From contig NC_086097.1 in NCBI RefSeq assembly GCF_963921235.1, positions 129,954,001 through 130,018,000 on the forward strand: a stretch of 64,000 nucleotides of DNA, given 5' to 3'. The translations under genes and the position numbers were made by a program. The first letter of the stretch is position 1. Each line of letters opens with the position of its first letter. Below, piece by piece: positions 1,008-52,931 of the stretch. A model generated the notes under the pieces. That model searched no databases and had not been told where the DNA came from. It was given only the letters and a program-made list of their open reading frames with translations. The stretch is from Mobula hypostoma (lineage: Eukaryota).

Positions 1008-3960
1008 AGCAATCTTCAGACAAGTTATGAAATGCTCCTGTATCCTACCACATCCCAAAGGTATCCAGGTTGGTACATTATCTGGCCACTGTAAATTGCC
1101 TCTGATATATAAATGAGACGGAATTTGGGGCAAAATTGGGAGCAAAATAGCAGCATCAAAATGGTCCACTAAAAAGTAACTGAGCACAACTTGATATTTT
1201 AGGGGAGCAGAGATTCTAGCCTCATAAAATGAATATTTTGAAATGATGTAAAGTTTCTCACCACTTGAAAGTAACTGATCTTCAAGAACACTGCCCTACC
1301 TAGTTGATCATAAGACAATGGAGCAGAATTACGCCATTTGGTTTATCGAGTCTGTCATGGCTGAGTTATTATCTCTCTCAACCACATTCATCTGCCTTCT
1401 CCCCGTTATCTTTGATGCCCTTACAAATCAACAATCTATTAAACTCCACTTTAAATATACCTAATGACTTGGACTCCACAGCCATCTGTGGCAATGAATT
1501 CCATTGATTCTCCACCCTCTGGCTGAACAAGTTCTTCTTTATCTCGGTTCAAAAGGGAAGACTTTGTATTCTGAGACTGCGCTCTCTCATCTTAGACTCC
1601 TTCCATTTTAGGAAACATCCTCTCCACATCCACTCTATCTAAGCTTTTCACTATTTGATAGGTTTCAATGCGATCCGTGCCTCATTCTTCTAAATTTCAG
1701 CCCACAGCCATCAAATGGTCCTCTTAAATAATCCTTTTATTTCCGGGACCATAATTATGTAATTTGCATCCACTGCTTTAATTTAAAATCTGGTGCTATG
1801 CAGACACTGTCATGCTAAGAAATTGTTGCAGGGTCTCCTAAAACACACTTGCTGATTTGGTCATATATAGATTTGTTCCTGTAATTTGCAGGAAAAATCT
1901 TTCTCAGAACACCATTAGCGTTTCTCCATGCATTCATCTAGTAAGTCTTTAAAATTAATGCCATTAAAATTTCTTGTCAAAACAATTACTTCAACGACTA
2001 CTGTCCTGATGAATTGTACCATTTTGTGATCAGCTGTGGTGTTTCTTTAGATGACTATATTTCATGGGTTTAATTTTATGATCTATAAATAAAATGTACT
2101 CCTGTAATAAATCACAGTTTGCATTCATTTAACATGTATAGAATCACTGCACTTGTATAAATAAATGGATTAATAATTGGAAATTAAATCACAATGTAAT
2201 ACATGGCTTCGGTTGTATTCATATAGAAGAAGATGATTCAGAGCATTATTCTCCAGATCTAATGAAGCTTGAAGCATTTGTTTTAAGGTTATTAACAAAG
2301 GAACAAGAAGTAGTATGAGAAATCGGTGGGAATGGATGATCTATACTACGCTGAGTGAAAGGGCGGTTAGTAGCAAACTTAAAGATTCAAGGAAATGGAA
2401 AAGTATTTGATGTCCACCAGACAAAATGGTGAATTGCAGGGGAGTGGAACTTACTCAAAACTCTTTCAACGTGCACACAAACTTGCTACAATTAGATAAA
2501 TCAGAAAATTAAATCAGTTCCAGCTGCAGTAACCTAGGTCATAACTCTTCCTATCACCTATGATAATAAGAATTTGCATACAGAACCCTTAATGCAGCAA
2601 AAAATTTCTCAAGGGCCTTAAAGATAAAGACTAACACTGAGCCAGAGAAATCAAAGTTTTGACAAAGCTTGCAAAAAGATAAGGTTCTAAAGTGAACAGA
2701 AAGAAGTGGAGAGATTTAAGTAGAGAATTCTAGTAATTACAGAGGAGGCTACTGAAGGCATGCGTAGTTAACTGTAAAGTCTACCCCAAATTCATCAACT
2801 ACATAAAACTTTTGTTTGTTTTTCATGGGGGGGGGAGGAAATTGATTCCCTTAAGGAAACCATGCTGACTTTGTCCTATCTTGTCCTGTGTGACAAAGTA
2901 CTCCATAATCTCATCCTTAACAATTGACTCCAGCATATTCCCAATCACTGAGGTCAGCCTAACTGGTCTACAATTTCCTTTCTGCTGCCTTCCTCCTTTC
3001 TTAAACAGTGGAATGACACTTGGAATTTTTCCAGTCCTCTGGCACCATGCCAGAGTCCAATGATTTTTGAAAGATTGTTGCTAATGGCTCCACAATCTCT
3101 ACTGTTACCTTTTAGAATCCTAGGGTGCAGTTCATTTACCCTTAGGTCTTTCAGCTTTTTGAGCACATTTTCCCATGTAATAGTAACTGCACTCACTTCT
3201 CTTCCCTCACCCTTCAACACCTGACTGATGCAAAATACTCATTTAGTTCATCTACAATCTCCTTGGTCCCCGTTATTATTTCTCCAGCCTCATTTTCTAC
3301 TAGTCCTATATCCACTCTGATTTCTCTTTTATTTTTTTTTTTACATACTTGATAAAGCTTTTACTATCCACTTTGATATTGTTTCCTAGTTTGCTTTCAT
3401 GGTTTATCTTTTCCCTCCTAATGATATTTTATCTACTCTCTGTAGGGTTTTAAAAACTTTCCAATCTTCTATCTTCCCACTAATTTTTGCATTGTTGTAT
3501 GCCCTCATATTTCCTTTTACATTAGGTTTGACTTCCCTCCTTAGCCATGGTTGTACTATTTTGTCATTTGAGTATTTCTTTAAGTTTTTGGAATACATCT
3601 ATCCTGCACCTTCCTCACTTTTCCCAGAAACTCATGCCATTGCTGCTCTGCTGTCATCCCTGTCAGCATCACCTTCTAACTTACTTTGGCCATCTTCTCT
3701 CATACCATTGTAATTTCCTTCACTCCACCGAAATACTGCCACATCAGAATTTACTTTCTCCCTATCAAATTTCAAGTTGAAATCAATCATACTGTGATCA
3801 CTGCCTCCTAAGGGTTCTTTTACCTTAAGCTCCCTAGTCACCTTCGGTTCATTACATAACACCCAATCCATAATACCCCTTGTAGGCTCAACTACACACT
3901 GCTCTAAAAAGCCATCTAGTGGGCATTACCAAACTGATTTTCCCAATTGATCTGCACGTT
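1008..3960 (+). repeat. Segmental duplication copy A (partner ~55172-58625)
   Basis: Colinear direct similarity over non-TE sequence (e.g. caagttatgaaatgctcctgtatcc at 1021 vs ~55183) and shared deletions inside the embedded CR1. Confidence 0.93.
1308..1745 (-). mobile_element. Old CR1 3' end fragment
   Basis: Typical CR1 3' sequence (ggagcagaatta...ctgtggcaatgaattcca...caccctctggct). Also present in the duplicate at ~55470-55890. Confidence 0.8.
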
Positions 3961-4282
3961 GAAATCTTCCCTTACAATCATAACGTTGCCCTTTTGACAA
4001 GCCTTTTCTATTTCCCATTGTAATCTGTGGTCCACATCCTAGCTACTTTTGGAAGGCTTTTATACAACTGCCGTCAGTGTCCTTTTCACATGTGCAGTTT
4101 TGAAACTCAACCCACCAGGTTTCAACATTTTCTGATCCTACACCACATCTTTCTGCTCTTTTAATGTAATTCTTTACCAACAGAGCCACGACACCCCCTT
4201 TGCCTACCTTCCTATCCCTCTGATGCAACATGTAACCTCAGACATTCACTCCCAAATAGAAGCATCCTTCAGCCACGATTCA
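2846..4282 (-). mobile_element. Degraded CR1 ORF2 fragment (APE endonuclease to start of RT)
   Basis: Fragment ORFs carry DWVLCNEP, EPLGGSDH, RDRKVGKGGVVALLVK and PWLRREVK motifs. Confidence 0.9.
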
Positions 4283-4979
4283 GAGACATGATTGGCAGTG
4301 ATCAGCAATCCCACTTCATTCTGATCTCAAGTTTTTTAAGGCACCCTAATGTTGTGCTATCCTAGTCTTCGGTGGCCTTTCAGTTTCCCCAACATATATG
4401 TTTTGGCACGGTGATAGAGGTATGGAGTACGCAACTCCCTGACACCGTTCTTTAGGTCCTCTAGGTGCCACTTTGCTTAGCTTTTTTCAAATTAAGTCCT
4501 CATTTTTTGCATTAACTGGACATTATATTTTTGGCAAATTCATCTGAGCTTTTCAGTTAAGCTGACCACACATTCCTAAAGAGGGTCTGGCCTAAAAAAA
4601 ATGGACCAATCAGAACAGGGCTAATTCAATAACTAGTCAGGAACAGGCAATTCAGATCCAGCCACTCACGATCAAGCATTCAGCCCTGCCCATGTCCTGC
4701 TCAGTCAAGAGGGTATTTGAGGAGCTGTCTCGAAGGTGACTTGTCATTTGACTAACGTGCCTAAGAAGATGGTTGGGTTTACTTTTGAAACATTGCAATC
4801 AGTATCCGTAGGTATGTGACCATTAAGGCCAAAGGATAGTATGGATAGATTTGATAGCCAGTCACAACGCTTCTGTAGACTTTAACGATATAGAAACATA
4901 GAAAATAGGTGCAGGAGTAGGCCATTCGGCCCTTCGAGCCTGCACTGCCATTTATTATGATCATGGCTGATCATCCAAC

Positions 4980-7900
4980 TCAGAACCCCGCCTCAGCCTT
5001 CCCTCCATACCCCCTGACCCCTGTAGCCACAAGGGCCATATCTAACTCTCTCTTAAATATAGCCAATGAACTGGCCTCAACAGCTTCCTGTGGCAGAGAA
5101 TTCCACAGATTCACCACTCTCTGTGTGAAGAAGTTTTTCCTAATCTCGGTCCTAAAAGGCTTCCCCTCTATCCTCAAACTGTGACCCCTCATTCTGGACT
5201 TCCCCAACATCGGGAACAATCTTCCTGCATCTAGCCTGTCCAATCCCTTTAGGATCTTATACGTTTCAATCAGATCCCCCCTCAATCTTCTAAATTCCAA
5301 CGAGTACAAGCCCAATTCATCCAGTCTTTCTTCATATGAAAGTCCCGCCATCCCAGGAATCAATCTGGTGAACCTTCTTTGTACTCCCTCTATGGCAAAG
5401 ATGTCTTTCCTCAGATTAGGGGACCAAAACTGCATACAATACTCCAGGTGTGGTCTCACCAAGGCGTACAACTGCAGTAGTACGTCCCTGCTCCTGTACT
5501 CGAATCCTCTCGCTATAAATGCCAGCATACCATTCGCCTTTTTCACCGCCTGCTGTACCTGCATGCCCACTTTCAATGACTGGTGTATAATGACACCCAG
5601 GTCTCGTTGCACCTCCCCTTTTCCTAATCGGCCACCATTCAGATAATAATCTGTTTTCCTATTTTTGCCACCAAAGTGGATAACTTCACATTTATCCACA
5701 TTAAATTGCATCTGCCATGAATTTGCCCACTCACCCAACCTATCCAAGTCAGCCTGCATCCTCTTAGCATCCTCCTCAGTGCTAACACTGCCACCCAGCT
5801 TCGTGTCATCCGCAAACTTGGAGATGCTGCATTTAATTCCCTCATCCAAGTCATTAATATATATTGTAAACAACTGGGGTCCCAGCACTGAGCCTTGCGG
5901 TACCCCACTAGTCACCGCCTGCCATTCTGAAAAGGTCCCGTTTATTCCCACTCTTTGCTTCCTGTCTGCTAACCAATTCTCCACCCACACCAATACCTTA
6001 CCCCCAATACCATGTGCTTTAAGTTTGCATACTAATCTCCTGTGTGGGACCTTGTCAAAAGCCTTTTGAAAATCCAGATATACCACATCCACTGGTTCTC
6101 CCCTATCCACTCTACTGGTTACATCCTCAAAAAATTCTATGAGATTCGTCAGACATGATTTTCCCTTCACAAATCCATGCTGACTTTGTCCGATCATTTC
6201 ACTACTTTCCAAATGTGCTGTTATCACATCCTTGATAACTGACTCCAGCAGTTTCCCCACCACCGACGTTCGGCTAACCGGTCTATAATTCCCCGGTTTC
6301 TCTCTCCCTCCTTTTTTAAAAAGTGGGGTTACATTAGCCACCCTCCAATCCTCAGGAACTAGTCCAGAATCTAATGAGTTTTGAAAAATTATCACTAATG
6401 CATCCACTATTTCTGGGGCTACTTCTTTAAGCACTCTAGGATGCAGACCATCTGGCCCTGGGGATTTATCTGCCTTCAATCCCTTCAATTTACCTAACAC
6501 CACTTCCCTACTAACATGTATTTCGCTCAGTTCCTCCATCCCACTGGACCCTCTGTCCCTTACTATTTCTGGAAGATTATTTATGTCCTCCTTAGTGAAA
6601 ACAGAACCAAAGTAACTATTCAATTGGTCTGCCATGTCCTTGCTCCCCATAATCAATTCACCTGTTTCTGTCTGCAGGGGACCTACATTTGTCTTTACCA
6701 GTCTTTTCCTTTTTACATATCTATAAAAGCTTTTACAGTCCGTTTTTATGTTCCCTGCTAGTTTTCTCTCATAATCTTTTTTCCCCTTCCTAATTAAGCC
6801 TTTTGTCCTCCTCTGCTGAACTCTGAATTTCTCCCAGTCCTCAGGTGAGCCACTTTCTCTGGCTAATTTGTATGCTTCTTCTTTGGAATTGATACTATCC
6901 CTAATTTCTCTTGTCAGTCACGGGTGCACTACCTTCCTTGATTTATTCTTTTGCCAAACTGGGACGAACAATTGTTGTAGTTCATCCATGCAACCTTTAA
7001 ATGCTTGCCATTGCATATCCACCGTCAATCCTTTAAGTGTCATTTGCCAGTCTATCTTAGCTAATTCACGTCTCATACCTTCAAAGTTACCCCTCTTTAA
7101 GTTCAGAACCTTTGTTTCTGAATTAACTATGTCACTCTCCATCTTAATGAAGAATTCCACCATATTATGGTCACTCTTACCCAAGGGGCCTTTCACGACA
7201 AGATCGCTAATTAACCCTTCCTCATTGCTCAAAACCCAGTCCAGAATAGCCTGCTCTCTAGTTGGTTCCTCGACATGTTGGTTCAAAAAACCATCCCGCA
7301 TACATTCCAAGAAATCCTCTCCCTCAGCACCTTTACCAATTTGGTTCACCCAGTCTACATGTAGATTGAAGTCACCCATTATAACTGCTGTTCCTTTATT
7401 GCACACATTTCTAATTTCCTGTTTAATACCATCTCCGACCTCACTACTACTGTTAGGTGGCCTGTACACAACTCCCACCAGCGTCTTCTGCCCCTTGGCG
7501 TTACGCAGCTCTACCCATATCGATTCCACATCTTCCCGGCTTATGTCCTTCCTTTCTATTGCGTTAATCTCTTCTTTAACCAGCAACGCCACCCCACCTC
7601 CCATTCCTTCATGTCTATCCCTCCTGAATATTGAATATCCCTGAACGTTGAGCTCCCATCCCTGGTCACCCTGGAGCCATGTCTCTGTGATCCCAACTAT
7701 ATCATAATCATTAATAACAATCTGCACTTTCAATTCATCCACCTTATTACGAATGCTCCTTGCATTGACACACAAAGCCTTCAGGCGCTCTTTTACAACT
7801 CTCTTAGCCCTTATACAATTATGTTGAAAAGTGGCCCTTTTTAATGCTTGCCCTGGATTTGTCGGCCTGCCACTTTTACTCTTCTCCTTAGTACTTTTTG

Positions 7901-8009
7901 CTTCTACCCTCACTTTACACCCCTCTGTCTCTCTGTACTGGTTCCCATCCCCCTGTTGTGAACTAACCTCCTCACGCCTAGCCTCTTTAATTTGATTCCC
8001 ACCCACCAA
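4980..8009 (-). pseudogene. CR1 ORF2 (APE endonuclease + reverse transcriptase) with one internal nonsense codon
   Basis: ORFs 6918-8009 (NARS, ITETW, MGDFN, GKSDH) and 4980-6656 (YLDFQKAFD, GVPQGS, FADD) are in the same frame. The 87 codons between them are open; the only break is TGA at 6918-6920 in PW/*LT. Confidence 0.93.
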
Positions 8010-8014
8010 CTATT

Positions 8015-8950
8015 CTAGTTTAAAGTCACTTCAGTAGCCCTCGCTAATCTCCCTGCCAGGATATTGGTCCCCCTAGGATTCAAGTGTAACCCATCCTTTT
8101 TGTACAGGTCATGCCTGCGCCAAAAGAGGTCCCAATGATCCAAAAACTTGAATCCCTGCCCCCTGCTCCAATCCCTCAGCCACGCATTTATCCTCCACCT
8201 CATCGCATTCCTACTCTCACTGTCGCGTGGCACAGGCAGTAATCCCGAGATTACTACCTTTGCGGTCCTTTTTCTCAACTCCCTTCCTAGCTCCCTATAT
8301 TCTCCTTTCAGGACCTCATCCCTTTTCCTACCTATGTCATTGGTACCTATATGTACCACGACCTCTGGCTCCTCACCCTCCCACTTCAGGATATCTTGGA
8401 CACGATCAGAAATATCCCGGACCCTGGCACCAGGGAGGCAAACTACCATCCGGGTCTCTGGACTGCGTCCACAGAATCGCCTATCTGACCCCCTTACTAT
8501 CGAGTCCCCTATCACAACTGCCCTCCTCTTCCTTGCCCTACCCTTCTGAGCTACAGGGCCAGACTCTGTGCCGGAGGCACGGCCACTGTCGCTTCCCCCG
8601 GGTAAGCTGTCCCCCCCAACAGTACTCAAACAGGAGTACCTGTTGTTAAGGGGCACAGCCACCGGGGTACTCCCCATGACCTGACTTTTCCCCTTCCCCC
8701 TCCTAACCGTGACCCACTTGTCTGCCTCCCGTGGCCCCGGTGTGACCACCTGCCTTCCACTCCTCTCTATCACCTCCTCGCTCTCCCTGACCAGACGAAG
8801 GTCATCGAGCTGCAGCTCCAGTTCCGTAACGCGGTCCCTTAGGAGCTGCATCTCGATGCACTTGGTGCAGATGTAGATGTCCGGGAGGCTTGGAGACTCC
8901 AGGGCCTCCCACATCCGACACCGAGAACAGCAAACTGCCCTCTCACTCAT
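8015..8950 (-). CDS. CR1 ORF1p: N-terminal Cys zinc-finger-like/coiled-coil region + SGNH esterase domain
   Basis: CCSRC...CTKC, heptad LELQLDDL, and esterase motifs IGDS, HIGTND, DGLH. Likely start is the ATG at ~8950 (MSERAV); the open frame extends to 9052. Confidence 0.9.
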   Translation of the reverse strand: MSERAVCCSRCRMWEALESPSLPDIYICTKCIEMQLLRDRVTELELQLDDLRLVRESEEVIERSGRQVVTPGPREADKWVTVRRGKGKSQVMGSTPVAVPLNNRYSCLSTVGGDSLPGGSDSGRASGTESGPVAQKGRARKRRAVVIGDSIVRGSDRRFCGRSPETRMVVCLPGARVRDISDRVQDILKWEGEEPEVVVHIGTNDIGRKRDEVLKGEYRELGRELRKRTAKVVISGLLPVPRDSESRNAMRWRINAWLRDWSRGQGFKFLDHWDLFWRRHDLYKKDGLHLNPRGTNILAGRLARATEVTLN

Positions 8951-8959
8951 AATGCCCCT

Positions 8960-9170
8960 CTCCTCAAATAACAACAGAAAATGAATGTCAAACCTTCCTC
9001 GCCTCGCCCGCTTCGCCGAAGCCCTTAGGTCTTCACCCTGCTCCTGGCTCACTCCGCCGCCCGCAAACTACGCTGCCCGCTCTATGAGGCTTTGTTCCTT
9101 TTAAATCTGCCGCGCTGCACTGCCCGACGTCACACGCCTGTGCAGTCCCGCCTCTCAGAACGCCGTTGGA
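8960..9170 (-). promoter_or_regulatory. CR1 5' UTR / putative internal promoter
   Basis: CpG-dense in a CpG-poor background, with a CRE-like TGACGTC core at ~9126-9132, directly upstream of ORF1. Confidence 0.5.
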
Positions 9171-31682: not shown

Positions 31683-32128
31683 TAAGACATAGGAGCAGAA
31701 TTAGGCCATTGGTCCATGACTGAGTCATTCCACCATTCAATCATGGCTGATTTATTTTCCTTCTCCATCCCATTCTTCTGCCTTTTCCCCATAACTTTTG
31801 AATCCCTTACTAATCAAGAATGTATCAACCTCTGCATTCGATATACCCAATAACTTGGCTTCCACGGCCGTCTGTGGCAATGAATTCCATAGATTCACCA
31901 CTCTCTGGCTAAAGAAATTCTTCTTCATCTCTTTTTTAAAAGGACTTCCCGTGATTTTCAGGCTGTCCCCTCTGGTCTTGCACTCTGCCGCTATTGGGAA
32001 CATTCTCCTCGTGTTTACTCTATCTAGGCCTTTCAATATTTGGTAGGTTTCAATGAGATCCCCCCTCATTCTTCTACTCTCCAGTGAGTACAGATCAAGA
32101 GCCATCAACCGCTCCCGATACATTAACC
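31683..32128 (-). mobile_element. CR1 3' end inserted within a V-SINE-like element (SINE parts ~31555-31680 and ~32165-32345)
   Basis: ORF 31752-32138 encodes the CR1 ORF2 C-terminus (RRMRGDLIE, FFSQRVVNLWNSLP). Confidence 0.85.
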
Positions 32129-32769
32129 CAGTATACAAAGTAATCTGGCATCGGAGTTAGAAATTGACAGGAATGATATGTGGACATCATTAACCCATCA
32201 ACATGTATGCCTTTGAAATGTGCACGTAAACTGGAGCACTTAAGATCATCCACCTGGCCATAGGGAGAACTTGCACACTCCAGATAGTTAGTGCCAGAGG
32301 TCAGCATTAGACCTGGGTCTCTGAAGCTGTAAGGCAATTAGTTCCATGCATTTTTCTTTGCAATCCTGCAAATTCCCCTGCTTTAAGTTTTTTTTTATTT
32401 TCTATGCACTAAGCACTCAAAGTTGTGATGTGAGTATTTTGAAATGCGTTTTGAAATTCAGTCTCACTGACTTCAAAGAACAGATCAGTGGTTTACCTCA
32501 TAATCCGTATAGTGTATACTCCACAGGACAGTACACACGCTACGAAGAGTGCAAAACTTAACCTCGGTACCAGTAGCCTCTGAACCAATGGCCTTCAAAG
32601 TCAAAGTGAAACTTCACTTCTGCGAATTCATAAAGTGGCAGGTTTGGTGGAAGCTTTTAAGGAATTCATTCATCAGAATTACTGAGGTTCAAAGCAAAGA
32701 CAAAATTAAACTTTGAGCAAATGGTTGATATGATGGAAGCTTTTAAGCCACAATTAGTGTTGGCGATAT

Positions 32770-33057
32770 CTCCTTCCTCAAAGGGCACCCTGGACATGGC
32801 CTTTTCTTGTTACCACAATCAGGGAGAAAGTACAGGAGTCCAAAGACCCACAATGAATGATTCAGAATCAGCCTCACCCCCTCCACCATCAAATTTCTGA
32901 ATGGTCTATGAACCCACAAATACTACCTCAATATTCCTTTTCTGGGCACTATTTATTTTTGTAATTTATAATAATTTTTACGTCTTTGCACTGTACTTCT
33001 TCTGCAGAACAACAAATAGCACATCTCAGCAGTCAGTGATAATAAATGTGATTTCTG
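32770..33057 (+). mobile_element. Rex1/Babar-like 3' fragment next to the exon donor site
   Basis: atcagggagaaagtacaggag...ccctccaccatca...gtgataataaatgtgatt tail. Confidence 0.75.
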
Positions 33058-33082
33058 AAGCAAGAACAAGGTGCAACCTTAC

Positions 33083-33294
33083 CTAAGAACTCTGCCCGTC
33101 AAGCTTCCTTCACTGGATGATGATTTTGGCCTTGTTTCCATTTCGGTCTTCACACTTTCTGTTGCTCCAGGTTCTGGTCTCAGCTCTTCTTGCTTTTGCA
33201 CCTCCTCTTGGGGCTGTTCAACCTGCTCCTTCACCTTCTCTTCCTTCTCAGTCTCACTTTCATTGTCACTGTCTTCTCCCAAGATATCATCCAC
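33083..33294 (-). CDS. CTDP1: Internal coding exon of RNA polymerase II CTD phosphatase FCP1 (penultimate coding exon, acidic C-terminal region)
   Basis: Encodes VDDILGEDSDNESETEK...SSSSEGSLTGRVLR, resembling recalled vertebrate FCP1 (KE)VDDILGEGSDDSDSEK...SSERS...GPR(GHKRK). Acceptor ttttacatttcaaccccatatggcag|GTG and donor AG|gtaagg; phases 0 and 2. Confidence 0.85.
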
Positions 33295-33699
33295 CTGCCA
33301 TATGGGGTTGAAATGTAAAATTAAACCATCGGAATTGCTCTTCAGCAGCCACACAATCCAGCAGATTGATAATTGTAGAATTTTTTTTTAAAACTGCAGA
33401 TGATGGAATTCTAAAATAAAAACAGAAAATGCTAGAAGCTCTCATCAGTTCAGGCAGCATCAATGGAAAGAGAAACAGTTAAGGAAACAGGTCTGTGACT
33501 TTTGTTAGAACAAATACTGATTTAGTTTTCATTTTTTTTTACATTTAGTTCCTCCTTTTCAACTCTTTATTAACTTCCTCTATCCATCTACAATCAGCCT
33601 GTCAAGCAATCCAAGTGCCAAGGAAAGATTAACCTGATCCATCTTACATCCGATTAAGCACTTCTGTAGGTACTTGTGTCATGAATTCTGTGTTCTTGC

Positions 33700-34180
33700 A
33701 TTCTGGGAGGAAAAAAAAATTCTTCTGAATTCTATACTCAGACTATTAGTCACTACCATAGCTACTGCATCCAATCTCTCCTCTATGCTGAAAGCAATTT
33801 CTCAACGTCTCCTTCATCAAACCACTTCAGAAGACCACCATCAGGCCAATTATCTTCTAGTGAGAAGTACACCTCCTGTATTCCCAAGTCTCTTTGCACT
33901 TGGAATTTTTGAATTTTCTCTCCATTTAGAAAATAGTCTGTGCTTTTATTCCTTCTACCAAAGAGTATGTCCATATACTTCCCTGAATAGTATTCCACTT
34001 ACCACTTGTTTGCTCATTTTTTTATCTGTCCAAGTCCTTCTGCAGCCTCCCTGCTTCCTCAACACTTCTTGGCCCTCCACCTATCTACTTCCGCAACTTG
34101 GCCACAAAAACATCAACTCCATCATCCAAGTCATTGACATACAACTTTAAAAGAAGTGGTCTCAACACCGACCCCTTGAC
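33700..34180 (-). mobile_element. Degraded CR1 RT fragment
   Basis: DYFLNGEKIQK..VQRDLG in ORF 33783-33998. Confidence 0.7.
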
Positions 34181-34739
34181 TATCTGAAAATGCCCAGCTT
34201 TGACATCCTGCACATTTGGAGATCCTCGTAGGTGAGAAATTAATATTAAAAAGTTCACAAAACTATTAAACTCAATGACAAATGAACTTAAAGATTCTGA
34301 TATTGCTTTTCATTCATTTCATTGAAGCTGCCGCTTTTAAAACAGGTTTCACCCAGTCTGGAATGTGGGAGACCTGCGGATGTATTGCGTTGGAGGACTC
34401 CATGATGAGTTGACCAGTCCGCTGTTTCAGCCCAGGTGTCCAGAGATCAGTTTAAAGCAGGAAGCTGCATTTTAGTCTGTGCTTGGCATTCCTGCACTTG
34501 CACTCGGTAAAGTGCTTAAAATCTGCTAGATACAGAAGCTTTTATCTTGAAAATCTGGGCCACTGAGTGCGGACCAAATGCATTATCCTCCTGCTCTTTC
34601 AGGCCAACACTGGAGTGCTGGACTAAACCCCACAAGCTTTTATAGATATGCTGTGAACTGAGCCACAGCCACCACTCACAATGTTAACTACACTGGATGA
34701 TTAGATAGCACACAAGCATTAGGATTCCCCCTAGTTCTC

Positions 34740-34980
34740 CGGTAATTGCATGTAACAGTGAAGAGCTTTCGTCTGCATGCTATCCAGACCGAGCATTCCA
34801 TACAAAATTTTTTAAAGTAAATTTTAAAAATGCAGAGAAAATGTAGGACAAATAAAGTGCAAGGGCCATGGTGAGTTGGACTGAGAGATCAAAAGTTCAT
34901 TTTTATCTTATAAAAGATCCATTTAAGAGTCTTAAAACAACAGGATAGAAACTGTCCTTGAACCTATTGGTACGCCTTCT
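34740..34980 (-). mobile_element. Rex1/Babar-like 3' fragment
   Basis: agtcttaaaacaacaggatagaaactgtccttgaacct is the reverse of the sequence at ~21540 and ~41720. Confidence 0.6.
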
Positions 34981-35769
34981 CATTTAAGAAATCTGTTGCA
35001 GTTGTAAACCATTGTTAACTCATTGTTGTGAGTATTTTGAGACAAAATTAATGAACTAATTTATACACGGCTTATAAATTACCTCTCAGAATTTACAAAA
35101 AAAAACTCAGTTATATCTGTCAAGTCTACAAAGCCAATTAGCTCTTCAAATACATTCTACCACAGCCAGCTGGGTACCAGTAAGCATACCATCCTAGCTG
35201 TCTCAAGAACATCAAAGAAATTTTAATTGTATCATTAACAAAATCAGTGCCTTAGGGGATTTGAAAATGTAACAGATTTCGAGAGGGGATGGGGGTGAGC
35301 CAGAAGGGTAAAGCAGACTATCTGGTGATAATCAGTGTTGCTCGTCAGTGTTTCCCTACAATTGGTTGCCATGTTTTCTACACTGCAACAGGTCTTTAGG
35401 GCCTTCCTGTCAGAAGTCAAAAAGGTATTATGTAACCACAGTTCTTTTCATTCCAAAGTTATCTAAATTCAGCCCAGAATTTGACAATGTTTTCTGAAAC
35501 TCAGCTGAAACTGGGCTTCCAATGTGGAAATCCCATTGTCTACAGTATATGGTTCAGTTTACCACTTTGTTCTATCCTGCTGTGTTTGTGCATATGAGCT
35601 GCAAAACAAAGGTTATGCCCTGGGCCCAGTACTCTTCCGTTGTTTCATCATTAACTCACCTACAATCAGGTAGTCAATGGGAATGTTTAATGTTGATTGC
35701 ACAAGGTGCAGTTCCATTTGTAACTCTCTAGCAAATGAAGTAACCCATTCCTACTTTCAGCAAGACCAA

Positions 35770-36505
35770 AGCAACACTAAAGCATAGGCTGATAAGTGGC
35801 AAGTTCCATTGATACCAGGAAATGATAACCTCTGTCAGAATGGGTAGCCACCTTCCCATGACATTCAAAAGCATGACTACAATTGAGTTCCACCATCAAC
35901 ATTCTTGGAGGTGACACTTTTAACTAGGAACTGAATTGGTACAGCCACATAATTATTATGGTTTCTAGAGCAGGTGCAGAAGCTGCGTATCCTATGGCAA
36001 GTAGCTTGTTTCTCATATACCGAAGTCTTTGCACCATCTAAAACACAGAAGAGAGGAGTGTGATGAAATATCCTCTACTGGCCCGGAAGAGTGTGGTTTG
36101 AATATTAAAGAAGCTTGACATCTTGACTGAAAAACAGCCATTTGATTGACCTCTTCCTCTTCCTAAATATTAATTAGCATTATCAATGGCATACAGTGGT
36201 TGTAGTGTGTTAAAATTCTTGAATCGACTCAGACAGCACCTCCAAAATCAGTGACCTCCATCACCAAGGAACACATGGGCAGCACCACCACCAACTGCAT
36301 GGGCTCCTCCAAATAGCACACCATCCTGACTTGCAAGTATCACAGTCCTGGTTGGATCTATATCCTGAGGCTCCCTTCCCCACAGTATCACGGGAGAACC
36401 TTCACCAGAAGGGTAAGAGTGGTTTAAAAGGTGGCTCACCATCACCTTATCAGGAGATGGCCCATAAATAGTAGACAAGCCAGTGATGCCCAGATCTCCA
36501 AATAT
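35770..36505 (+). mobile_element. Old CR1/L2-clade LINE 3' fragment (distinct family)
   Basis: ADKWQV-like start, TINILGV-like motif, and a ggctcaccatcacctt...gccagtgatgccc 3' end. Confidence 0.55.
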
Positions 36506-36699
36506 GCATCAATTTAAAAAAAAGTCACACAATGAAGAACATCGTACAACTTCCAGCTAGTTTTGACAAGATTTATTCATAGATGATAGGTGGGTTCTCA
36601 AGCATTAGGGAAGCAAATGAGAGGCTGGAAAGTGATATAGGAGAAAATAACAGCATGTTTAATAGACATGACAGACGTGAATGGCCTGGAGCAAGGAAC

Positions 36700-38835
36700 A
36701 TCTATTGGATTAAGTTGCACTTATTTCAATGCAAGAGATCTGACAAGTAAGGTGGAAGAACCAAGGGCTTGGATTGCTACTTGAGTCTGAGATATTATAG
36801 TCAGTACAGTAACATTTCTAAGGAAGGGACAGGACTGATAGCTTAATGTTCCAGGGTACAGGTGCTTCAGGCAGGATAGAGGCAGAGGAAAGAGAGGAGG
36901 GGAAGTTGTATTTGTGGCTAGAGATGAAATTACTGAAGAAAAATCCACTGCGGCTTTACGAAAGATGCTGAGGCATGAGAAGGGGAAGATCACATTTTTG
37001 GGGTTGTACCAAAGCTCCCCAACTAGTCCCCAGGAATTAGAAGAATGAAGGAGAGCAAAAAGAGGGTGTGAGGAAACTTTGGTAGAGAAGGTTAAGGAAA
37101 ATCAAAAGAGATTTTAAGTATATTGAGGAAAAAAGGGTGACTAGAAGGAGAATAGGGCCCCTCAAAGACCAAAGAGGACACCTTTGTGTGAAGCCAATGG
37201 AGGTGGGCAAGGTCTTTCATGAATAGTTGCCCTCTGTTTTTACCATGGAGAAAGGCATAAAGAGTTTGGAACAAGGAAAGGTAAATGGGGAGGTCTTGGG
37301 GATAGTCTGCTTTACTGTAGAGGTGGTGCTGAATACTTTGAAAGGTATGAAGGTCGACAAATCTCTGGGACCTGATTAGGTTTATCCAAGAACACTTTAG
37401 ATGACTAGAGAAGAAACTGCAGTCACCCTGGTTGAGATACCTACATTATTGCTAGTCGCAGGCGAGATACTGGCAGAGTGGAGGATAGTAAATTCTGTGC
37501 CTTTATTTAAGAAGATACGCAAAGAAAAACTTGGGAACTACAGGTCAGTAGGTCTAACATCTGTGATAGGCCAGCTAATGGAAAGGATTCTGGAGGATAA
37601 GATATACATATATCTGGAAAGACAAGGACTAATTGTGGGTAGACAGCATGGCTTTGTGCATGGGAAATCACATCTTGGGAATTAGACTAAGGTTTTTAAT
37701 GAGGTACCAAAAAAGCTGATGAGGGCAGTGCAGAAGATGTGGACCAATAAGGCCTTTGAAATGGTTTCACATGATTGTCTGTTCTGGAAGGTCAGATCAC
37801 ATGTAATCCAGGAAGAGCTGGCTGATTGGATGCACAATTGGATTGATGATAGAAAGTAGCGGGCAATGGGAGGCAGTTGTTTCTTAGACTGGGTGCCTGT
37901 CTCTAGTGGTTTGCCTCAGGGGTCAGTGTCGAGCCAATTGTTGTTTGTCATTTATATCAATGATTTGGATAAGAATTTACAGAGCATGATTAGTAAGTTT
38001 CCAGACAACATGACAATAGGTGGTATAGGGGAGAATGAAGCAGGTCATCAAAAATTACAGGGGATCTTGAACAGCTAAATAAGTAGGCGAAGAAATGGCA
38101 AATGAGCTTAATTTGGATAAATGTGAGGTGTTCCATTTTGGAAAGTCAAATCCAATTAGGACTTTCATAGCGAACAGGAGGACCCTGGAGAGTACTGTAG
38201 AACAGAGGGACTTTGGAATACAAGTAAATTGTTCACAAAGCCGAGTCACAGTTAGAAAGTGGGATGAGGAAAGCTTTTGACACACTGAACCTTTTAAACC
38301 AGGGCTTTGAGTATAAATGTTTGGAAGCTGTGGTACAGTTGTACAAGCCACTGGTAAGGCTACACTTGGAGTAATGTTTTTAGTTTTGGTTGCCCTCCTA
38401 TAGAAAAGATGTTACTACACTGGAAAGAATGCAGAAAAGATTTACAATGATGCCTGGAGGACTCGAAGGACATACTTATAAGGAGAGGTTGGACAGGCTA
38501 GGACTTGACTTCTTAGAACCTAGAAGATCTTATGGATGTGAATGAGATCATGATAGGGCTAGAACGTATACACTCAGTCTTTTTCCACCAGAGTTGGGGA
38601 ATCATGAACTAGAGGGGCAATGTTTTTTTTTACACAAAGGATGGTGTCGATGTGGAACCATCTGCTGCAGGAAGTGATTGAGGCAGCTACCATAAAAACT
38701 TTTAAAAGATAGTTGGAAAGGGTTAGAAGGTTACGGGCCAAACTCTAGCAAATGGGACCAGCATGCTTTGGGGTATCTTGGTTGGCCTGGGCCACTTGGG
38801 CTGATGGGCCTGTTTCCATGTAATATGATTTTCTG
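36700..38835 (+). mobile_element. Degraded CR1 ORF2 with 3' end
   Basis: YFNAR, NYRSVGLTSV, QHGFVHGKS, SGLPQGSV, INDLD motifs with many stops. Confidence 0.88.
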
Positions 38836-44355: not shown

Positions 44356-47300
44356 CTAGAGCTATAAACTACAGGGTGAGGGACCAAGAGCCAGGCAGTG
44401 GGATTAATCTAAAATCCATTGTATTATATGGGTTAAAGAGTTTCGTTATGTGGTGGATATTTCTTTGATTCTAGGATCCAGGATTAGAGTCACAGTTAGT
44501 CCCAGGATGGATAAAGTTTCACTTCCCTGAAGGATATTAATGAAGTAGCTGCATTTTTAAAAATATTGCCAGAAGTTTCAAGGTGATCTTTACCAAGTCT
44601 TTTATATATTTCAGCCAGCATATATGAAAGGAAAATAATTCTGAATTCAAATCTACAATTGAGTCTGTCATTCTCTCCACTCAGAGCATTCAATTTGGCA
44701 GACTGTTAAGAGTGTATTAGAATCCAAATTAGACATTCAAATAGCCAGTCTGTGAGATGTGTAAGCTTTATGAGAATCTCATGAAATGGCAAAGGTGATG
44801 CATTGTTCAGTCACAGAATTTCTTCCTGGATCTGACTCAGTTTTATCAACTTTACTTCATTGTAAGTTTTCTACACATAATTTGAACAAAACAAAACTAA
44901 CGCCTGATAGGAACATGTTTATTGCTTGATAATAAAACAAAACAATTACAGAGAAAAATAGGAGCAGAAGACACCCAGTTGGTCTTTCAAAATCATTCTG
45001 ACTGATTTTCTATCTCAATATCAAATTCCAGCTCTTTCTCCATACTTTTTGGTATCTTTTGTATCTTGAATACTTCTCCTTAAATATATTTGGTGACTTA
45101 GCCACTGCAACCTTTTGTGGTAGAGAATTCCACGGGTTTTGGCACCTCAGTCCTAAACATGAGGAGACATTAGATTGCTTGGAGGTAGAGAGAGTTTAAA
45201 CGGAGTAAGTGGGGGCGATTGGCATGTTTTTGAGTGCCATAGTCCCAAGGAGACACCAAGTTGCTTGGAGGAAGAGTTTAAAAGAAGCGAATGGGACAGT
45301 CGGCATATTTTGTGTGCCACAGTCCCAAGGAGACATTGGATTGCGCAAAATTAGGCACTTGGCAAGGACAAATAAAAAAAAATTAGGTTTAGATGGAGTG
45401 GTTATCGTGGAAGCCCCAATGTGTGAGTGGGCCAGTGCTGGAGTGGGGAGTTGAGGTTTTGTTTCATGAAAGCTTTGCAGAAGAGAGGCTAGGCCATAGG
45501 TAGATCTTTTTTGTTATTTATTCTTTCTATATTCCTTATTGCACATTTAGAGCATTGGGGATGCCAGACAGAATACTGGTAGGTCCTCTTGTGGGATGTG
45601 GGAAGGTAGGGAGACCTCCAGTGTCCCTCAAAACTACGTCTGCAAGAAATGCATCCAGCTGCAGATTCCGTGTTAAGGAACCGGAGCTGCAGCTTGACAA
45701 CCTTCAGCTCATAGAGAAGGATAAGGAGGTGACAGATAGAAGCTACAGGGAGGTAGTGACTCCTAATTTGCTGGAGGCAGATACCTGAGTGACTGTCAGC
45801 AGAGGGAAAAAGAATAGACAGCCAGTGCAGAGGACCCCTGTGGCCGTTCCCCTCAACAATAAATATACTGCTTTAGATACTGCTGCAGGAAACAACCTAC
45901 CAGAGAAAAGCTGCAGCAAGCATGCCTCTGACACTGAGCCTGACTGAGAGGGAAGCTAAGAGAAGAGACAAGCTGTACTGATAGAGGATTCATTGGTTAG
46001 GGGAACAGAAAGGAGATCCTGTGGATGAGAACAAGATTCCAGGGTGGTTCCTGGATGCTAGGGTCAGGGATATCTCGGATCAAGTCCACAGCATTCTTAA
46101 GAGGGAGGGTGAGCAGCCAGAGGTCGTGGTCCCAGACAGTACCAATGGCATGGGTAGGATGGGTGGCGAGGTCCTGAAAAGTGAGTTGGGAAAGTTAGGA
46201 GCTAAGTTAAAGGACAGGATCTCCAGGGTTGTGATCTCAGGATTGCTACCTGTGCCACATGCTAGTGAGGCTAGAAATAGGAAGATCATATAGTTTAACA
46301 CATGGCTAAGGAGTTGGTGCAGGAGGGAGGGCTTCAGATTTTTGGATCACTGAACCCTCTTCCAGGGAAGATGTGACCTATACAGAAAGGACAGTTTACA
46401 CCTGAACTGGAGGGGGACTAATTTCTGAGAGGAAAAATTTGCCAGTGTTGCATAGTGGGGAGGGGAGGGGAGGTGGGGCGGGGGCAGGTTAAACCAGAGT
46501 TGCAGTGGGATGGGAACCAGAACATCAGAATAGATAGTGAAGTGATTACAGGGAAAGATCTTGTTAAGCCTACCTACAAAGTCAGGGATCAAAAGACTGA
46601 GCATACTGGGACTAATGTTCTGAGCTTCGTATATTTCAACGGAAGGAGTATTGTAGAAAAGGCGGATGGGCCAGAGCATGGATCAGCATGTGGAATTTTG
46701 ACATTGTTGCCATGAGTGAGACTTGGTTGCAGGAGTGGCAGAACTGACAGCTCAGTGTTCTGGGTTTCCATTGTTTTAAATGTGACAGAGATGGAGGGAT
46801 AAAAGGAGGAAGCATAGCATTACTAGTCAGGTAAAATGTCATGGCAGTACTCAGTCAGGACAGACTGGAGAGCTTGTCTGGTGAGGCTTTATGGAGAGAA
46901 CTGAGGAATAAGAAAGGGATGATCATGTTAATAGGATTATATTATGGACTACCCAAGAGTACACAGGATTTAGAGGAGCAAATTTGTAGAGAGATCAAAG
47001 ACCGTTACAAGTAACATAGAGGTTGTGATAGCAGGTGATTTTAACTTTCCACACATTGACCTGGACTCCCATACTATGAAAGGGTAGATGGTAAAGAGTT
47101 TGTCAAATGCATTCAGGAAAATTCCCTTAATCAGTATATAGAAATCCCAACTACAGAGAGTGCAATACTAGATCTATTAGGGAATGAGACCAGGCAGGTG
47201 ACAGAAGTTTGTGTAGGGGAAAGCTTTGCCATTGGTTTCAAGCTATTATGGAAAAGAATATGTCTAGTCTCAGGTTGAGATTCTAAATTGGAGAAAGGCC

Positions 47301-48753
47301 AATTTTAATGATATCAGGAAGGACCTGGAAAGTGTGGATTGGGTCAGGTTGTTTCCTGGCAAAGACGTACTTGAAGAAGGCCTTCAAAAGTGAAATTTTG
47401 TGAGTATAGAGTAAGTATGTTCCTGTCATAATAAAAGGCAAGGATAACAGGTTTAGGGAACCTTGGTTTTTGAGAGATTCTGAGGCCCTTTTTAAGTGAA
47501 AGAAGAAGGTGTATAGCAGGTATAGGCAGGCAGACATCAATGAGATACTTAAGGAGTATAAGAAATGCAATAGAACACTTAGGAAGGAAATCAGGAGTGC
47601 TAAAAGACACAAGGTTCCTCTTACAGACAGGGTAAAGAAGAATTATAAGAATTTCTACAGAAATATTAAGACAGCATGAGATAAAATTGGTCCTCTGGAA
47701 GATCAGAATGGTAATCTACGCTTGGAACCGGAAGAGATGGGGGAAGATCTTAAGTGGATTTCTTGCATCTGTTTTCACTTGGGAGATAGACACAGCATCT
47801 GTAGATGAGAGGCAATGTTGCAATGAGGTCAAGGACCGTATTGAAATTAAAGAGGAGGAAGTGCTTGCCGTCTTGAGGCAAATTAGGGTGGATAAGTCCT
47901 CAGGGATAATGTGTCCCTTGAACCCTGTAGGAGGCTAGTGCAGAAATTGCAGGGGCCCTAGCAGAGATATTTAAATCATCCATAGTCACAGGTGAGGTGC
48001 CAGAGGATTGGAAGATAGCTAATGTTGCTCCGCTATTTAAGAAAGGCTCTAAGATTAAGTCAGAAAATCATAGGCCGGTGAGCTTGACATTAGTAGGGGG
48101 AAAGTTGTCGGATGGTATTCTAAGGGACCGGATATGTAAGTATATAGATAGACGGGGAGTAATTTGGGATTATCAACATGACTTTCTGCATAGTCCGTGG
48201 TGTCTAACCAATTTTAAAGTTTTTTGAGGAAGTTACCCAGGAAAGTTAATGAAGGCAAGGCAGTGGATGTTGTCTACGTGGACTTGAGCAAGGTTTTCGA
48301 CAAAGTCCCACATAGGAGGTTGGTCAAGAAGATTCAGTTACTTGGCATTCAAAACGAGGTAGTAAATTGGATTAGACACTGGCTTTGCAGAACAGAGTGC
48401 TTGTCGATGGTTGCCTCTCTGACTGAAGACCTGTGACTAGTGTGTACCGCAAGAATTGATGCTGGGTCCACTGTTGTTTGTTATCTATATTAACAAAATG
48501 GATGATAATGTGATAAACTAGATCAGGCAGATGTCATCAAGATTGGGGACATAGTGGACAACAAGGAAGACCATCAAAACTTGCATTGGGATGTGGACTA
48601 GCTAGTGATATAGACTGAAAAACAGCAGATGGAATTTAATGCAAAGGGTTGCACTTTGGAAGGAGTAACGAAGGTAGTTCTTTCATGGTAAGTGGTAGGG
48701 CACTGAGCAGCGTGGTAGAAAAGAGGGTCTGGGAACAGATCCATAGTTCCTTG

Positions 48754-49795: not shown

Positions 49796-52700
49796 TAGAC
49801 AATAGGTGCAGGAGTAGGCCATTCGGCCCTTCGAGCCAGCACCACCATTCACTGTGATCATAGCTGATCATCCACAATCAGTATCCAGTTCCTGCCTTAT
49901 CACCATAACCCTTGATTCCGCTATCTTTAAGAGCTCTATCCATCTCTTTCTTGAAAGCATCCGGAGACTTGGTCTCCACAGCCTTCTGGGGCAGAGCATT
50001 CCATATATCCACCACTCTCTGGGTGAAAAAGTTTTTCCTCAACTCCGTTCTAAATGGCCTACCCCTTATTCTTAAACTGTGCCCTCTGGTTCTGGACTCA
50101 CCCATCAGCGGGAACATGCTTCCTGCCTCCAGCGTGTCCAATCCCTTAATAATCTTATATGTTTCAATAAGATTCCCCTCTCAGCCTTCTAAATTCCAGA
50201 GTATACAAGCCCAGTCGCTCCAATCTTTTGACATATGACAGTCCCGCCATCCCGGGAATTAACCTTGTGAAACTACGCTGCACTCCCTCAATAGCAAGAA
50301 TGTCCTTCCTCAAATTTGGAGACCAAAACTGCACACAGTACTCCAGGTGTGGTCTCACCAGGGCCCCGTACAGCTGCAGAAGGACCTCTTTGCTCTTATA
50401 CTCAATTCCCCTTGTTATGAAGGCCAGCATGCCATTAGCTTTCTTCACTGCCTGCTGTACTTGCATGCTTGCTTTCAGTGACTGATGTACAAGATCACCT
50501 AGATCTTGTTGTACTTCCCCCTTTCCTAACTTGACTCCATTTAGATAATAATCTGCCTTCCTGTTCTTACCAGTGGATAACCTCACATTTATCCACATTA
50601 AACTGCATCTGCCATGCATCTACCCACTCACCCAGCCTGTCCAAGTCACACTGCATTATCATAACATCCTCCTCACATTTCACACTGCCACCCAGCTTTG
50701 TGTCATTGGCAAATTTCCTAATGTTACTTTTAATTCCCTCATCTAAATCATTAATATATATTGTAAACAGCTGCGGTCCCAGCACTGAACCCTGCGGTAC
50801 CTCACTGGTCACCGCCTGCCATTCCGAAAAGGACCCGTTAATCGCTACTCTTTGTTTTCTGTCAGCCAGCCAATTTTCAATCCATGTCAGTACTCTGCCC
50901 CCAATACCATGTGCCCTAATTTTGCCCACTAATCTCCTATGTGGGACTTTATCAAGGGATTTCTGAAAGTCCAGGTACACTACATCCACTGGCTCTCCCT
51001 TGTCCATTTTCATAGTTACATCCTCAAAAAATTCCAGAAGATTAGTCAAGCACGATTCCCCTTCGTAAAGCTGTCTGTATTTCCTGAGGAGACTGAGGTC
51101 CTTTAACATCTGCCAGACGATGCTGAGGATGTTCTACGAGTCTGTGGTGGCCAGTGCGATCATGTTTGCTGTTATGTGCTGGGGCAGCAGGCTGAGGGTA
51201 GCAGACACCAACAGAATCAACAAACTCACCCGTAAGGCCAATGATGTTGTGGGGATGGAACTGGATTCTCTCACGGTGGTGTCTAAAAAGAGGATGCTGT
51301 CTAAGTTGCATGCCATCTTGATCAATGTTTCCCATCCACTACATAACATACTGGGTGGGCACAGGAGTACATTCAGCCAGAGACTCATTCCACCGAGATG
51401 CAGCACAGAGCATCATAGGAAGTCATTCCTGCCTGTAGCCATCAAACTTTACAACTCCTCCCTTGGAGGGTCAGACACCCTGAGCCAATAGGCTGGTCCT
51501 GGACTTATTTCATAATTTACTGGCATAATTTACACTACTATTTAACTATTTATGGTTCTATTACTATTTATTATTTATGGTGCAACTGTAACGAAAACCA
51601 ATTTCCCCCGGGATCAATAAAGTATGACTACTACTACTACTACTACTAAATCCATGCTGACTCGGGCCAATCCTGTTACTACTATCCAGATGTGTCATAA
51701 TTTCATCTTTTATAATTGACTCCAGCATCTTTCCCACCACCGACGTCGGGCTAACCGGTCTATAATTCCCTGTTTTCTCTCTTCCTCCCTTCTTGAAGAG
51801 AGGGACAACATTAGCCACCCTCCAATCCACAGGAACTGATCCTGAATCTATAGAACATTGGAAAATGATTACCAATGCGTCCACGATTTCTAAAGCCACC
51901 TCCTTAAGTACCCTGGGATGCAGACCGTCAGGTTTCGGGGACTTATCAGCCTTCAGACTCAACAGCCTGTCCAACACCATTTCCTGTCTAATATAAATTT
52001 CCTTCAGTTCATCCATTACCCTAGGTCCTTTGGCCACTATTATATCTGGGAGATTGTTTGTGTCTTCCCGAGAGAAGACAGATCCAAAGTACCTGTTCAG
52101 CTCATCTGCCATTTCCTTGTTCCCCATTATAAATTCTCCCGCTTCTGTCTTCAAGAGCCCAGTTTTGGTCTTAACTATTTTTTTTCCTTTTCACAGAACA
52201 GAACTAAAGAAGCTTTTACTATGCTCCTTTATATTCTTGGCTAGTTTACCTTCGTACCTCATTTTTTTCTCCGCGTATTGCCTTTTTAGTTACCTTCTGT
52301 TGCTCTTTAAAAGTTTCCCAATCCTCCAGCTTCCCACTTGTCTTTGCTATGTTATACTTCTCTTTTATTTATATACTGTCCATTACTTCCCTTGTCAGCC
52401 ACAGCCTCCCCTTACTCCCCTTAGGATCTTCCTTCCTCTTTGGAATGAACTGATCCTGCATCTTCCGCATTATTCCCAGAAACACTTGCCATTGCTGTTC
52501 CACTGTCATCCCTGCTAGGGTATTGTTCCATTGAACTTTGGCCAGCTCCTCCCTCACTGCACCATAGTTCCCTTTGTTCAACTGTAATACTGACACTTCC
52601 GAGTTTCCCTTCTCCCTCTCAAATTGTAGATTAAAACTTATCAATATTATGGTCACTACCTCCTAATGGCTCCTTTACCGCGAGGTCCCTGATCAAATCC

Positions 52701-52931
52701 GGTTCATTGCACAACACTAAATCTAGAATTGCGTTCTCTCTGGTAGGCTCCAGTACAAGCTGTTCTAAGAATCCATCTTGGAGGCATTCCACAAATTCCC
52801 TTTCTTGGGGTCCAGTACCAACCTGATTCCTCCAGTCTACCTGCATGTTGAAGTCCCCCATAACAACTGTAGCGATATGCCAATTTTAACTCTTGATTCA
52901 ACTTACACCCTACATCCAGACTACTGTTTGG
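49796..52931 (-). mobile_element. Young 5'-truncated CR1 (part of APE + RT + 3' end), a few frameshifts
   Basis: Successive ORFs 52631-52861, 52369-52656, 51564-52154, 50567-51109, 50164-50619 and 49878-50141 closely parallel the 4980-8009 protein. Confidence 0.95.
51070..51646 (+). mobile_element. Young 5'-truncated Rex1/Babar-like LINE with (TAC)n tail inside the CR1
   Basis: Open C-terminal ORF (LYFLRRLRSFN...SFLPVAIKLYN), ccccgggatcaataaagta followed by (tac)n, flanked by TAAA at 51066-51069 and 51647-51650. Confidence 0.9.

Follow-up and report, generated by a model that had tools for sequence, protein, structure and literature searches.

A conserved U_UUA_AAC heptamer at the ORF1/ORF2 junction of CR1 retrotransposons is consistent with -1 ribosomal frameshifting

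In coronaviruses, the -1 frameshift signal between open reading frames (ORFs) 1a and 1b has a strong pseudoknot 5-7 nt downstream of the slippery heptamer, and the 0-frame stop is not fused to that heptamer. In Rous sarcoma virus (RSV), the gag-pol heptamer A_AAU_UUA is followed directly by the gag stop UAG, pol occupies the -1 frame, and the site, which has a large pseudoknot, gives rise to a Gag-Pol fusion. Here we describe the junction between ORF1 and ORF2 of a near-full-length long interspersed nuclear element (LINE) on the minus strand (~9170-4893) of a 64,000-nt stretch of the genome of the ray Mobula hypostoma (contig NC_086097.1, positions 129,954,001 to 130,018,000; hereafter the window, numbered from its first letter). 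Judged by its architecture, the element is a young esterase-type CR1 LINE, and its ORF2 is probably expressed as an ORF1-ORF2 fusion by -1 programmed frameshifting on U_UUA_AAC. The CR1 junction resembles that of coronaviruses of the infectious bronchitis virus type in the identical heptamer, in its phase relative to the upstream frame and in the position of the polymerase frame at -1, and differs from it in that no structure was found, a G tract stands at +10 and the stop is fused to the heptamer. With RSV it shares the stop adjoining the heptamer, but the heptamer itself and the pseudoknot set the two apart, as does the nature of the element, RSV being a long terminal repeat (LTR) retrovirus and CR1 a LINE. 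PEG10/Edr and the Gag-Pol of LTR retrotransposons (G_GGA_AAC) have the same two-ORF retroelement layout with an X_XXA_AAC site, but are Ty3/gypsy-derived.

CR1 has been described as the dominant retrotransposon in many vertebrates (PMC13343379), and the mechanism by which LINEs translate their second ORF has been called 'not clear' (PMC3708506). Human L1 and the UAAUG coupling of SART1 present the same problem of a bicistronic second ORF (PMC3708506, PMC5009743). These elements make a separate ORF2 protein (ORF2p) and have no slippery heptamer, whereas CR1 is without a conserved AUG and its ORFs overlap at -1. The available excerpts of the literature searched contain no mention of frameshifting, ORF overlap or a slippery site in CR1; they include a 2016 review of recoding and CR1 surveys of 2014 and 2026 (PMC5009743, PMC3708506, PMC1965478, PMC13343379, PMC4316615, PMC3905857, PMC4255032, PMC1925062 and PMC4120745), with the earliest CR1 descriptions and supplementary files lying outside the scope of the search. 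A canonical -1 signal in any non-LTR element was likewise not found in these excerpts. The mechanism itself is of a known kind; novelty would lie in the non-LTR setting, in how deep the conservation goes and in the G tract.

An original prediction, made from the letters of the window, had placed TTTAAAC at 8024-8018 in X_XXY_YYZ phase, with the ORF1 stop TAG adjoining it at 8017-8015 and ORF2 in the -1 frame. Our reading of the sequence confirms each of these points, and the junction comprises the following features:

8015..8950, minus strand: ORF1, with its first ATG at 8950-8948, a length of 311 codons and its stop, TAG, at 8017-8015
8031..8033, minus strand: TGA of the -1 frame, two codons 5' of the heptamer, which together with the ORF1 stop bounds a 16-nt ORF1/ORF2 overlap
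8018..8024, minus strand: slippery heptamer T_TTA_AAC, in X_XXY_YYZ register with ORF1 and encoding the final ORF1 residues Leu-Asn
8010..8012, minus strand: in-frame TAG that disrupts ORF2 of the window copy; a minority state, with TGG in most copies
7998..8007, minus strand: G tract, GGTGGGTGGG in the window copy and GGGGGGTGGG in most family copies, beginning 10 nt past the heptamer
7767..8009, minus strand: ATG-less linker of the ORF2 frame, from the candidate shift site to the first endonuclease motif LCVNARS (N at ~7766-7764)

The minus strand reads GTG ACT TTA AAC TAG at the junction, and the -1 frame, TTT AAA CTA GAA TAG (8012-8010) TTG GTG GGT GGG AAT CAA, is that of the endonuclease and reverse transcriptase. 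The heptamer occupies most of the 16-nt overlap within which a productive shift is possible. The 10-mer itself is not rare, with 10 window matches at no more than one mismatch against 7.2 expected; the signal lies in the position of the motif and its conservation, and not in its bare occurrence. Of the two other window copies thought to carry the same junction, the one at 59233-59224 (minus strand) does so, reading GGT TTA AAC TAA, and the one at ~46488-46498 (plus strand) has decayed to GGTTAAACCAG, having lost one T and the stop.

Distant relatives were compared at the DNA level. Metagenome contigs were scanned with an alignment of ORF1 proteins (ORF1p), giving 44 loci with 23-55% protein identity, in which the end of ORF1 was placed by protein homology only and the motif was not consulted. 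Twelve loci ran past the fetched DNA, 15 were without a C-terminal match, and 17 were resolved. In 13 of the 17 resolved ends (protein identity to the ray 23-39%), NNN TTA AAC directly precedes the stop, which is TAG in 12 and TAA in one, and the base preceding TTA is T in 12 and G in one. TTTAAAC plus a stop is present with the frame lost nearby in L081 and L108, and absent from the last two resolved ends (L092 and L117). Free synonymous variation of the Leu-Asn codons would have told against the original prediction; none of the 17 resolved ends writes Leu-Asn in other codons (13 of 13 are TTA AAC), while other conserved Leu and Asn codons drift. This drift was scored in 15 sequences, namely the 13 motif-bearing loci and two window copies; as the motif governed the choice of this set, evidence can be drawn from its control columns only. 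Six codons occur at an invariant Leu and five at another Leu, and a conserved Asn is written AAT in 10 and AAC in four. Because TTA AAC is fixed at 13 ends while the control codons vary, selection appears to act at the nucleotide level, and the comparison indicates that the heptamer is conserved as nucleotides, beyond coding needs, in ray, bird-like, annelid-like and unplaced lineages.

Six of the metagenome loci are nearest, among named proteins, to a hummingbird ORF1p (52-66%), and L082 and L087 are nearest to proteins of the tubeworm Ridgeia (60-76%; two members of the five-locus L082 group were compared). L113 is weakly nearest to a turtle protein (48%), and L084 has no more than 40% identity to any named protein. 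An endonuclease match falls in the -1 frame relative to ORF1 in seven relatives, and in three more the first segment of a broken match does so. In six relatives with the endonuclease match in the -1 frame, no stop interrupts this frame over the 363-402 codons up to the locus end; on the 5' side it is shut 1-5 codons before the heptamer in 8 of the 15 metagenome relatives.

Copies within the ray agree with this picture. The genome holds at least 1,840 candidate junction matches, and the 40 that were scored are 97-100% identical; the family is therefore young. In 30 fetched junctions, the window copy included, TTTAAAC is intact in 28 and TATAAAC in the remaining two, and the ORF1 stop is TAG in all 30. 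The in-frame TAG of the window copy had been read as a TGG>TAG mutation, and rightly so: this codon is TGG in 27 of the 30 copies and at almost the full contig depth in runs from four organisms, in which T>C at position 8011 carries nearly all the depth. These runs, none of them on record as RNA, consist of contigs whose origin from RNA is no more than a guess. They show A>C as the majority state at position 8005, a G-tract site, and contain no variant at or above 10% over 8015-8027, with variation at flanking positions. The -1 frame is shut by the TGA two codons 5' of the heptamer in 28 of the 30 young-family copies and is open beyond the shift site in 27; it reaches the first endonuclease motif (NARS) at codon 86 in 25 copies, and in three it is open across all 541 fetched codons. 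An older ray family, ~88% identical to the 59233 copy, has TTTAAAC in 23 of 30 copies and a TAA stop in 29 of 30. In a much older family (~78%; the copy at ~46488-46498), exact TTTAAAC is found in 5 of 21 aligned copies, TTTAAA plus another base in three and GTTAAA in six. A fourth ray family, found via an unrelated query, reads NNT TTA AAC TAA in 15 of 18 resolved ends.

At the protein level, 120 homologues were compared for each of two ORF1 proteins. With the ray ORF1p as reference, 80 have Leu-Asn at the C-terminus, these being from rays, sharks, coelacanth, frogs, turtles, squamates and a hummingbird; with the annelid-type ORF1p, 81 do. The remainder of both sets consists mostly of truncated or chimeric gene models, and a few proteins differ by one residue (IN, VN, FN, SN). 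The residue preceding Leu-Asn is variable; the annelid set has S, F, Y, C or L there and no other, all of them with a T-ending codon available, and the ray set has E twice. That about two thirds of the homologues share this end could reflect a requirement of the esterase for a C-terminal Leu-Asn, with the heptamer as its by-product. Under such selection on the protein, Leu could also be written CTN or TTG, and Asn AAT, yet 0 of 13 independent Leu-Asn ends use them, and it does not account for T as the third base of the variable preceding codon in 12 of 13; we consider this explanation very improbable.

The region between the junction and the endonuclease domain bears on how ORF2 is entered. 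The linkers from the ORF1 stop to the first endonuclease motif contain no stop codon in the ORF2 frame, against 38 in that of ORF1 and 69 in the third, across 13 sequences, three of which are copies of one ray family and one of which (L108) has a doubtful motif match. We take the linker to be translated in the ORF2 frame. For the window copy, the statement that no ATG precedes the first endonuclease motif holds, and the first Met, put at about 135 codons by the original prediction, lies at codon 140 from the heptamer. In the young family, 20 of 30 copies have their first ORF2-frame Met at codon 215. Because this ATG is 129 codons beyond the first endonuclease motif, a Met-initiated product would be without the N-terminal nuclease motifs; in APE-family enzymes, such N-terminal motifs carry catalytic residues. 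An AUG upstream of the endonuclease domain is conserved neither among the 30 family copies nor among the metagenome relatives. A start codon at or within a few nucleotides of the ORF1 stop, the mark of stop-start coupling, is not a general trait of the 17 lineages: an ORF2-frame ATG stands near the stop in only four, none of them ray families, at codon 5 in three lineages and at codon 4 in one further lineage. Codon 5 is GTG in two lineages and TTG in one, and in the others it is TGG, TCG, GCA, GCG, GAC or GAA. After the ORF1 stop, most family copies have A ATG G (window 8010-8014, minus strand), in the +1 frame, with only eight codons open; the ATG inside TAGAATGG was accordingly rejected by eye as an ORF2 start, being in the +1 frame with a stop after eight codons.

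Termination-reinitiation is the main rival to frameshifting. The 40S subunit would stay on the RNA after UAG, perhaps held by the G tract, and resume initiation on an AUG or near-cognate codon close by in the -1 frame, making a separate ORF2p; termination-reinitiation and stop-start coupling have been discussed for other LINEs (Odon et al. 2013, PMC3708506). The stop adjoins the motif in every lineage and the G tract keeps a fixed distance from the stop, as this mechanism would have it, and the ATG, GTG and TTG codons at codon 5 and the single ATG at codon 4 offer it possible starts. It leaves unexplained, however, why TTA is kept out of six Leu codons, AAC out of two Asn codons and a T before them while other codons drift; the candidate start codon is not conserved, the phase is not accounted for, and the conserved 7-mer is a top-ranked slippery site in the correct register with ORF2 exactly at -1. 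A trait of reinitiation is an upstream motif of the TURBS type (termination upstream ribosome-binding site), complementary to 18S ribosomal RNA (rRNA); in the ray families UGGGA was seen by eye 3' of the ORF1 stop and not 5' of it, and no rRNA complementarity search was made. We regard termination-reinitiation as unlikely. Frameshifting is favoured because the heptamer is in phase, ORF2 is at -1, the shift window is tiny, no usable start is present, the linker is open and the conservation is at the nucleotide level.

U_UUA_AAC is among the most shift-prone heptamers on mammalian ribosomes (Atkins et al. 2016, PMC5009743). Under -1 frameshifting, most ribosomes translating ORF1 would terminate at UAG and release the esterase ORF1p. 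A minority would slip one base back, with the transfer RNAs (tRNA-Leu and tRNA-Asn) on U_UUA_AAC re-pairing to UUU AAA, and would then read CUA GAA UGG UUG GGG and on through the endonuclease and the reverse transcriptase. The product would be a Gag-Pol-like ORF1p-ORF2p fusion, in which the predicted junction joins ...T-L-N to L-E-W-L-G-G-G-N. We infer slippage itself from the comparison of copies and lineages, and infer further that the adjacent stop and the G tract 10 nt downstream help the slip; its efficiency is presumably low, with no strong structure behind the site. The Gag-Pol-like fusion proposed in the original prediction thus finds support on comparative grounds, from the conserved heptamer, the fixed Leu-Asn codons and the open, ATG-less -1 frame.

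The G tract is the one conserved element downstream. All 17 lineages have a run of four to six G that begins 7-12 nt past the heptamer, at exactly 10 nt in 13 of them. In the -1 frame, 14 of the 17 have GGG as codon 7, and codon 6 is G-ending in 15, though it encodes Leu, Gln, Lys, Arg, Ser or Gly; because GGG at codon 7 is accompanied by a G-ending codon 6 across six residues, the tract looks as if it were selected at the RNA level. It stands farther from the site than the usual stimulator. A minority of stimulators at 12-15 nt can be linear RNA tied to trans-acting factors (PMC5009743), and the G tract recalls these. In arteriviruses (nsp1-beta with poly(C)-binding protein) and cardioviruses (2A), the 3' element is 10-14 nt away, resembling the ~10 nt of CR1; the CR1 element is a run of G, as against the C-rich motif or hairpin of these viruses, and the likeness serves only as a working analogy. 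A G tract at a fixed distance may represent a new kind of frameshift stimulator.

Several observations weigh against frameshifting. The support is comparative, and a heptamer without a stimulator would be expected to shift weakly. A stimulatory hairpin or pseudoknot 5-9 nt downstream, typical of canonical -1 signals, was not found, the G tract at +10 being the only conserved element: minimum-free-energy folds of the 100 nt 3' of the site did not exceed mononucleotide shuffles in stability (z values of -1.7 to +1.1 across 16 lineages), an Rfam search returned no frameshift element and only two chance-level matches to unrelated families, and a two-layer G-quadruplex is predicted, without conservation, in just 4 of 16 lineages. 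The check proposed with the original prediction, for a pseudoknot, hairpin or G-quadruplex downstream, thus gave no conserved feature by folding and G-quadruplex prediction in these lineages or by Rfam. Further, the stop always touches the heptamer, a contact that frameshifting does not need and that fits a termination-linked mechanism too, and codon 5 is a possible start (ATG, GTG or TTG) in 6 of 17 lineages. The layout is also not universal among LINEs with an esterase-type ORF1. When 1.84 billion cluster representatives were searched with a profile, 150 matches were listed, from which 36 ending before profile position 309 were dropped; among the matches listed, 114 representatives reach the C-terminal region, ending in LN (57), GN (10, nine of them QGN), KN (2), SN (2) or otherwise (43), with a profile that was built mostly from LN-ending proteins and hence favours LN. 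Finally, a contig in a metagenome-assembled genome of Sedimenticola (L127:1-3357) carries a eukaryote-type LINE in a bacterial bin, presumably host DNA, with a long ORF1-like frame ending CAG TAG and the endonuclease ORF in the -1 frame; the slippery heptamer is absent from the ORF1 stop of this unrelated element.

Small hairpins noticed by eye, UGUG/CACA round the G run in L083 and CCAGGC/GCCUGG at some bird-like loci, were set aside as they are not common across lineages.

The conservation of the block as nucleotides, beyond the protein, together with the lack of a detected frameshift-stimulating structure, would also suit some other RNA-level role for TTTAAAC, the stop and the G tract, such as a binding site for ORF1p or a host protein or a packaging site, with ORF2 reached by an unrelated route such as internal entry. 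This would leave unexplained the opening of the ORF2 frame 1-5 codons ahead of the block in 8 of 15 relatives, its open, ATG-less course from there and the X_XXY_YYZ phase of the block with ORF1. We hold such a role to be improbable.

A broader form of the frameshifting proposal is that a single ancient module, from annelids to birds, consists of U_UUA_AAC, the stop, 7 nt and about five G. ORF2p would be made solely as a fusion, the slip would depend on the unstructured G tract acting with a trans-acting factor (possibly ORF1p, as feedback) or through a ribosome contact, and sister lineages would have swapped in G_GGA_AAC or A_AAA_AAC. This wider scheme is possible, and we put it forward tentatively, as one that may well prove wrong. 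If frameshifting itself is correct, these LINEs follow a retrovirus-like Gag-Pol strategy in which the enzyme is tethered to the RNA-coating protein, which would bear on the cis-preference of LINEs, on how the ORF1p:ORF2p ratio is set and on the annotation of CR1 ORF2, existing gene models of which begin at internal Met codons or omit the N-terminus. A slippery site fixed in ray, bird-like and annelid-like elements makes the question of LINE ORF2 translation testable with reporters.

A second class of esterase ORF1 proteins ends in QGN (P0293, P0116, P0298, P0309, P0316, P0322, P0325, P0340 and P0364), and two proteins end in KN (P0321 and P0367). From the protein ends alone, we predict that these would fit G_GGA_AAC (CAG GGA AAC) and A_AAA_AAC (NNA AAA AAC), respectively. 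DNA for the QGN and KN relatives was found neither in the metagenome loci nor among viral contigs, which gave no matches; genome contigs yielded bacterial hydrolases and one unrelated LINE, and the best matches in the ray genome belong to another Leu-Asn family. Three annelid-type models (P0150, P0180 and P0189) join esterase and endonuclease into a single protein and include the -1-frame peptide FKLVSQGGYTEK. These models were rejected as frameshift evidence, since they seem to be copies with an indel near the junction or gene models bridging it.

The remaining parts of the window element are as follows:

~8515-8069, minus strand: esterase domain (GDSL/SGNH) of ORF1, Pfam Lipase_GDSL_2, E 4.9e-17, stop-to-stop residues 185-333
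7158..7730, minus strand: apurinic-type endonuclease domain of ORF2, Pfam Exo_endo_phos, E 3.9e-12, and Exo_endo_phos_2, E 7.4e-11
6918..6920, minus strand: second in-frame stop of ORF2 in the window copy
5655..6308, minus strand: reverse transcriptase domain of ORF2, Pfam RVT_1, E 1.2e-33
4982-4980, minus strand: ORF2 stop TGA
4893..4979 (end approximate), minus strand: 3' untranslated tail with short TTCTATG-like repeats and without poly(A), by eye

The stop-to-stop frame of ORF1 extends over 9067..8015 and has a Cys-rich motif in its N-terminus and the C-terminus ...ATEVTLN; the Lipase_GDSL_2 match exceeds the curated cut-off, and the closest named ORF1 protein, from a ray, is 95% identical. 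The long frame of ORF2 runs over 8009..6918 and then 6917..4980 on the minus strand, at -1 relative to ORF1. Because this frame holds two stops, the window's own copy is dead. Its 3' tail ends ...ttctatgtttctata (by eye), and we take the short direct repeats there to match the CR1 3' repeat consensus. Chondrichthyan L2 elements are without ORF1 (PMC13343379), and the assignment to CR1 is therefore favoured.

The window is crowded with fragments of diverged CR1 lineages on both strands (5-1675, 2847-4287, 31776-38706, 45584-48652 and 49881-60675), which have 30-82% protein identity to the young copy; an ORF2 remnant at 49881-52873, for example, has 62-82%. ORF1p-like sequences also stand under misleading public names (P0021, P0025, P0064 and P0067). 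The ray ORF1p shares 61% identity with an 'SGNH/GDSL hydrolase [Pseudomonas aeruginosa]' whose contig is 4 kb long, and CR1 ORF1p makes up all or part of a sawfish '40S ribosomal protein S24 isoform X2' and of manta ray 'transmembrane protein 204' isoforms.

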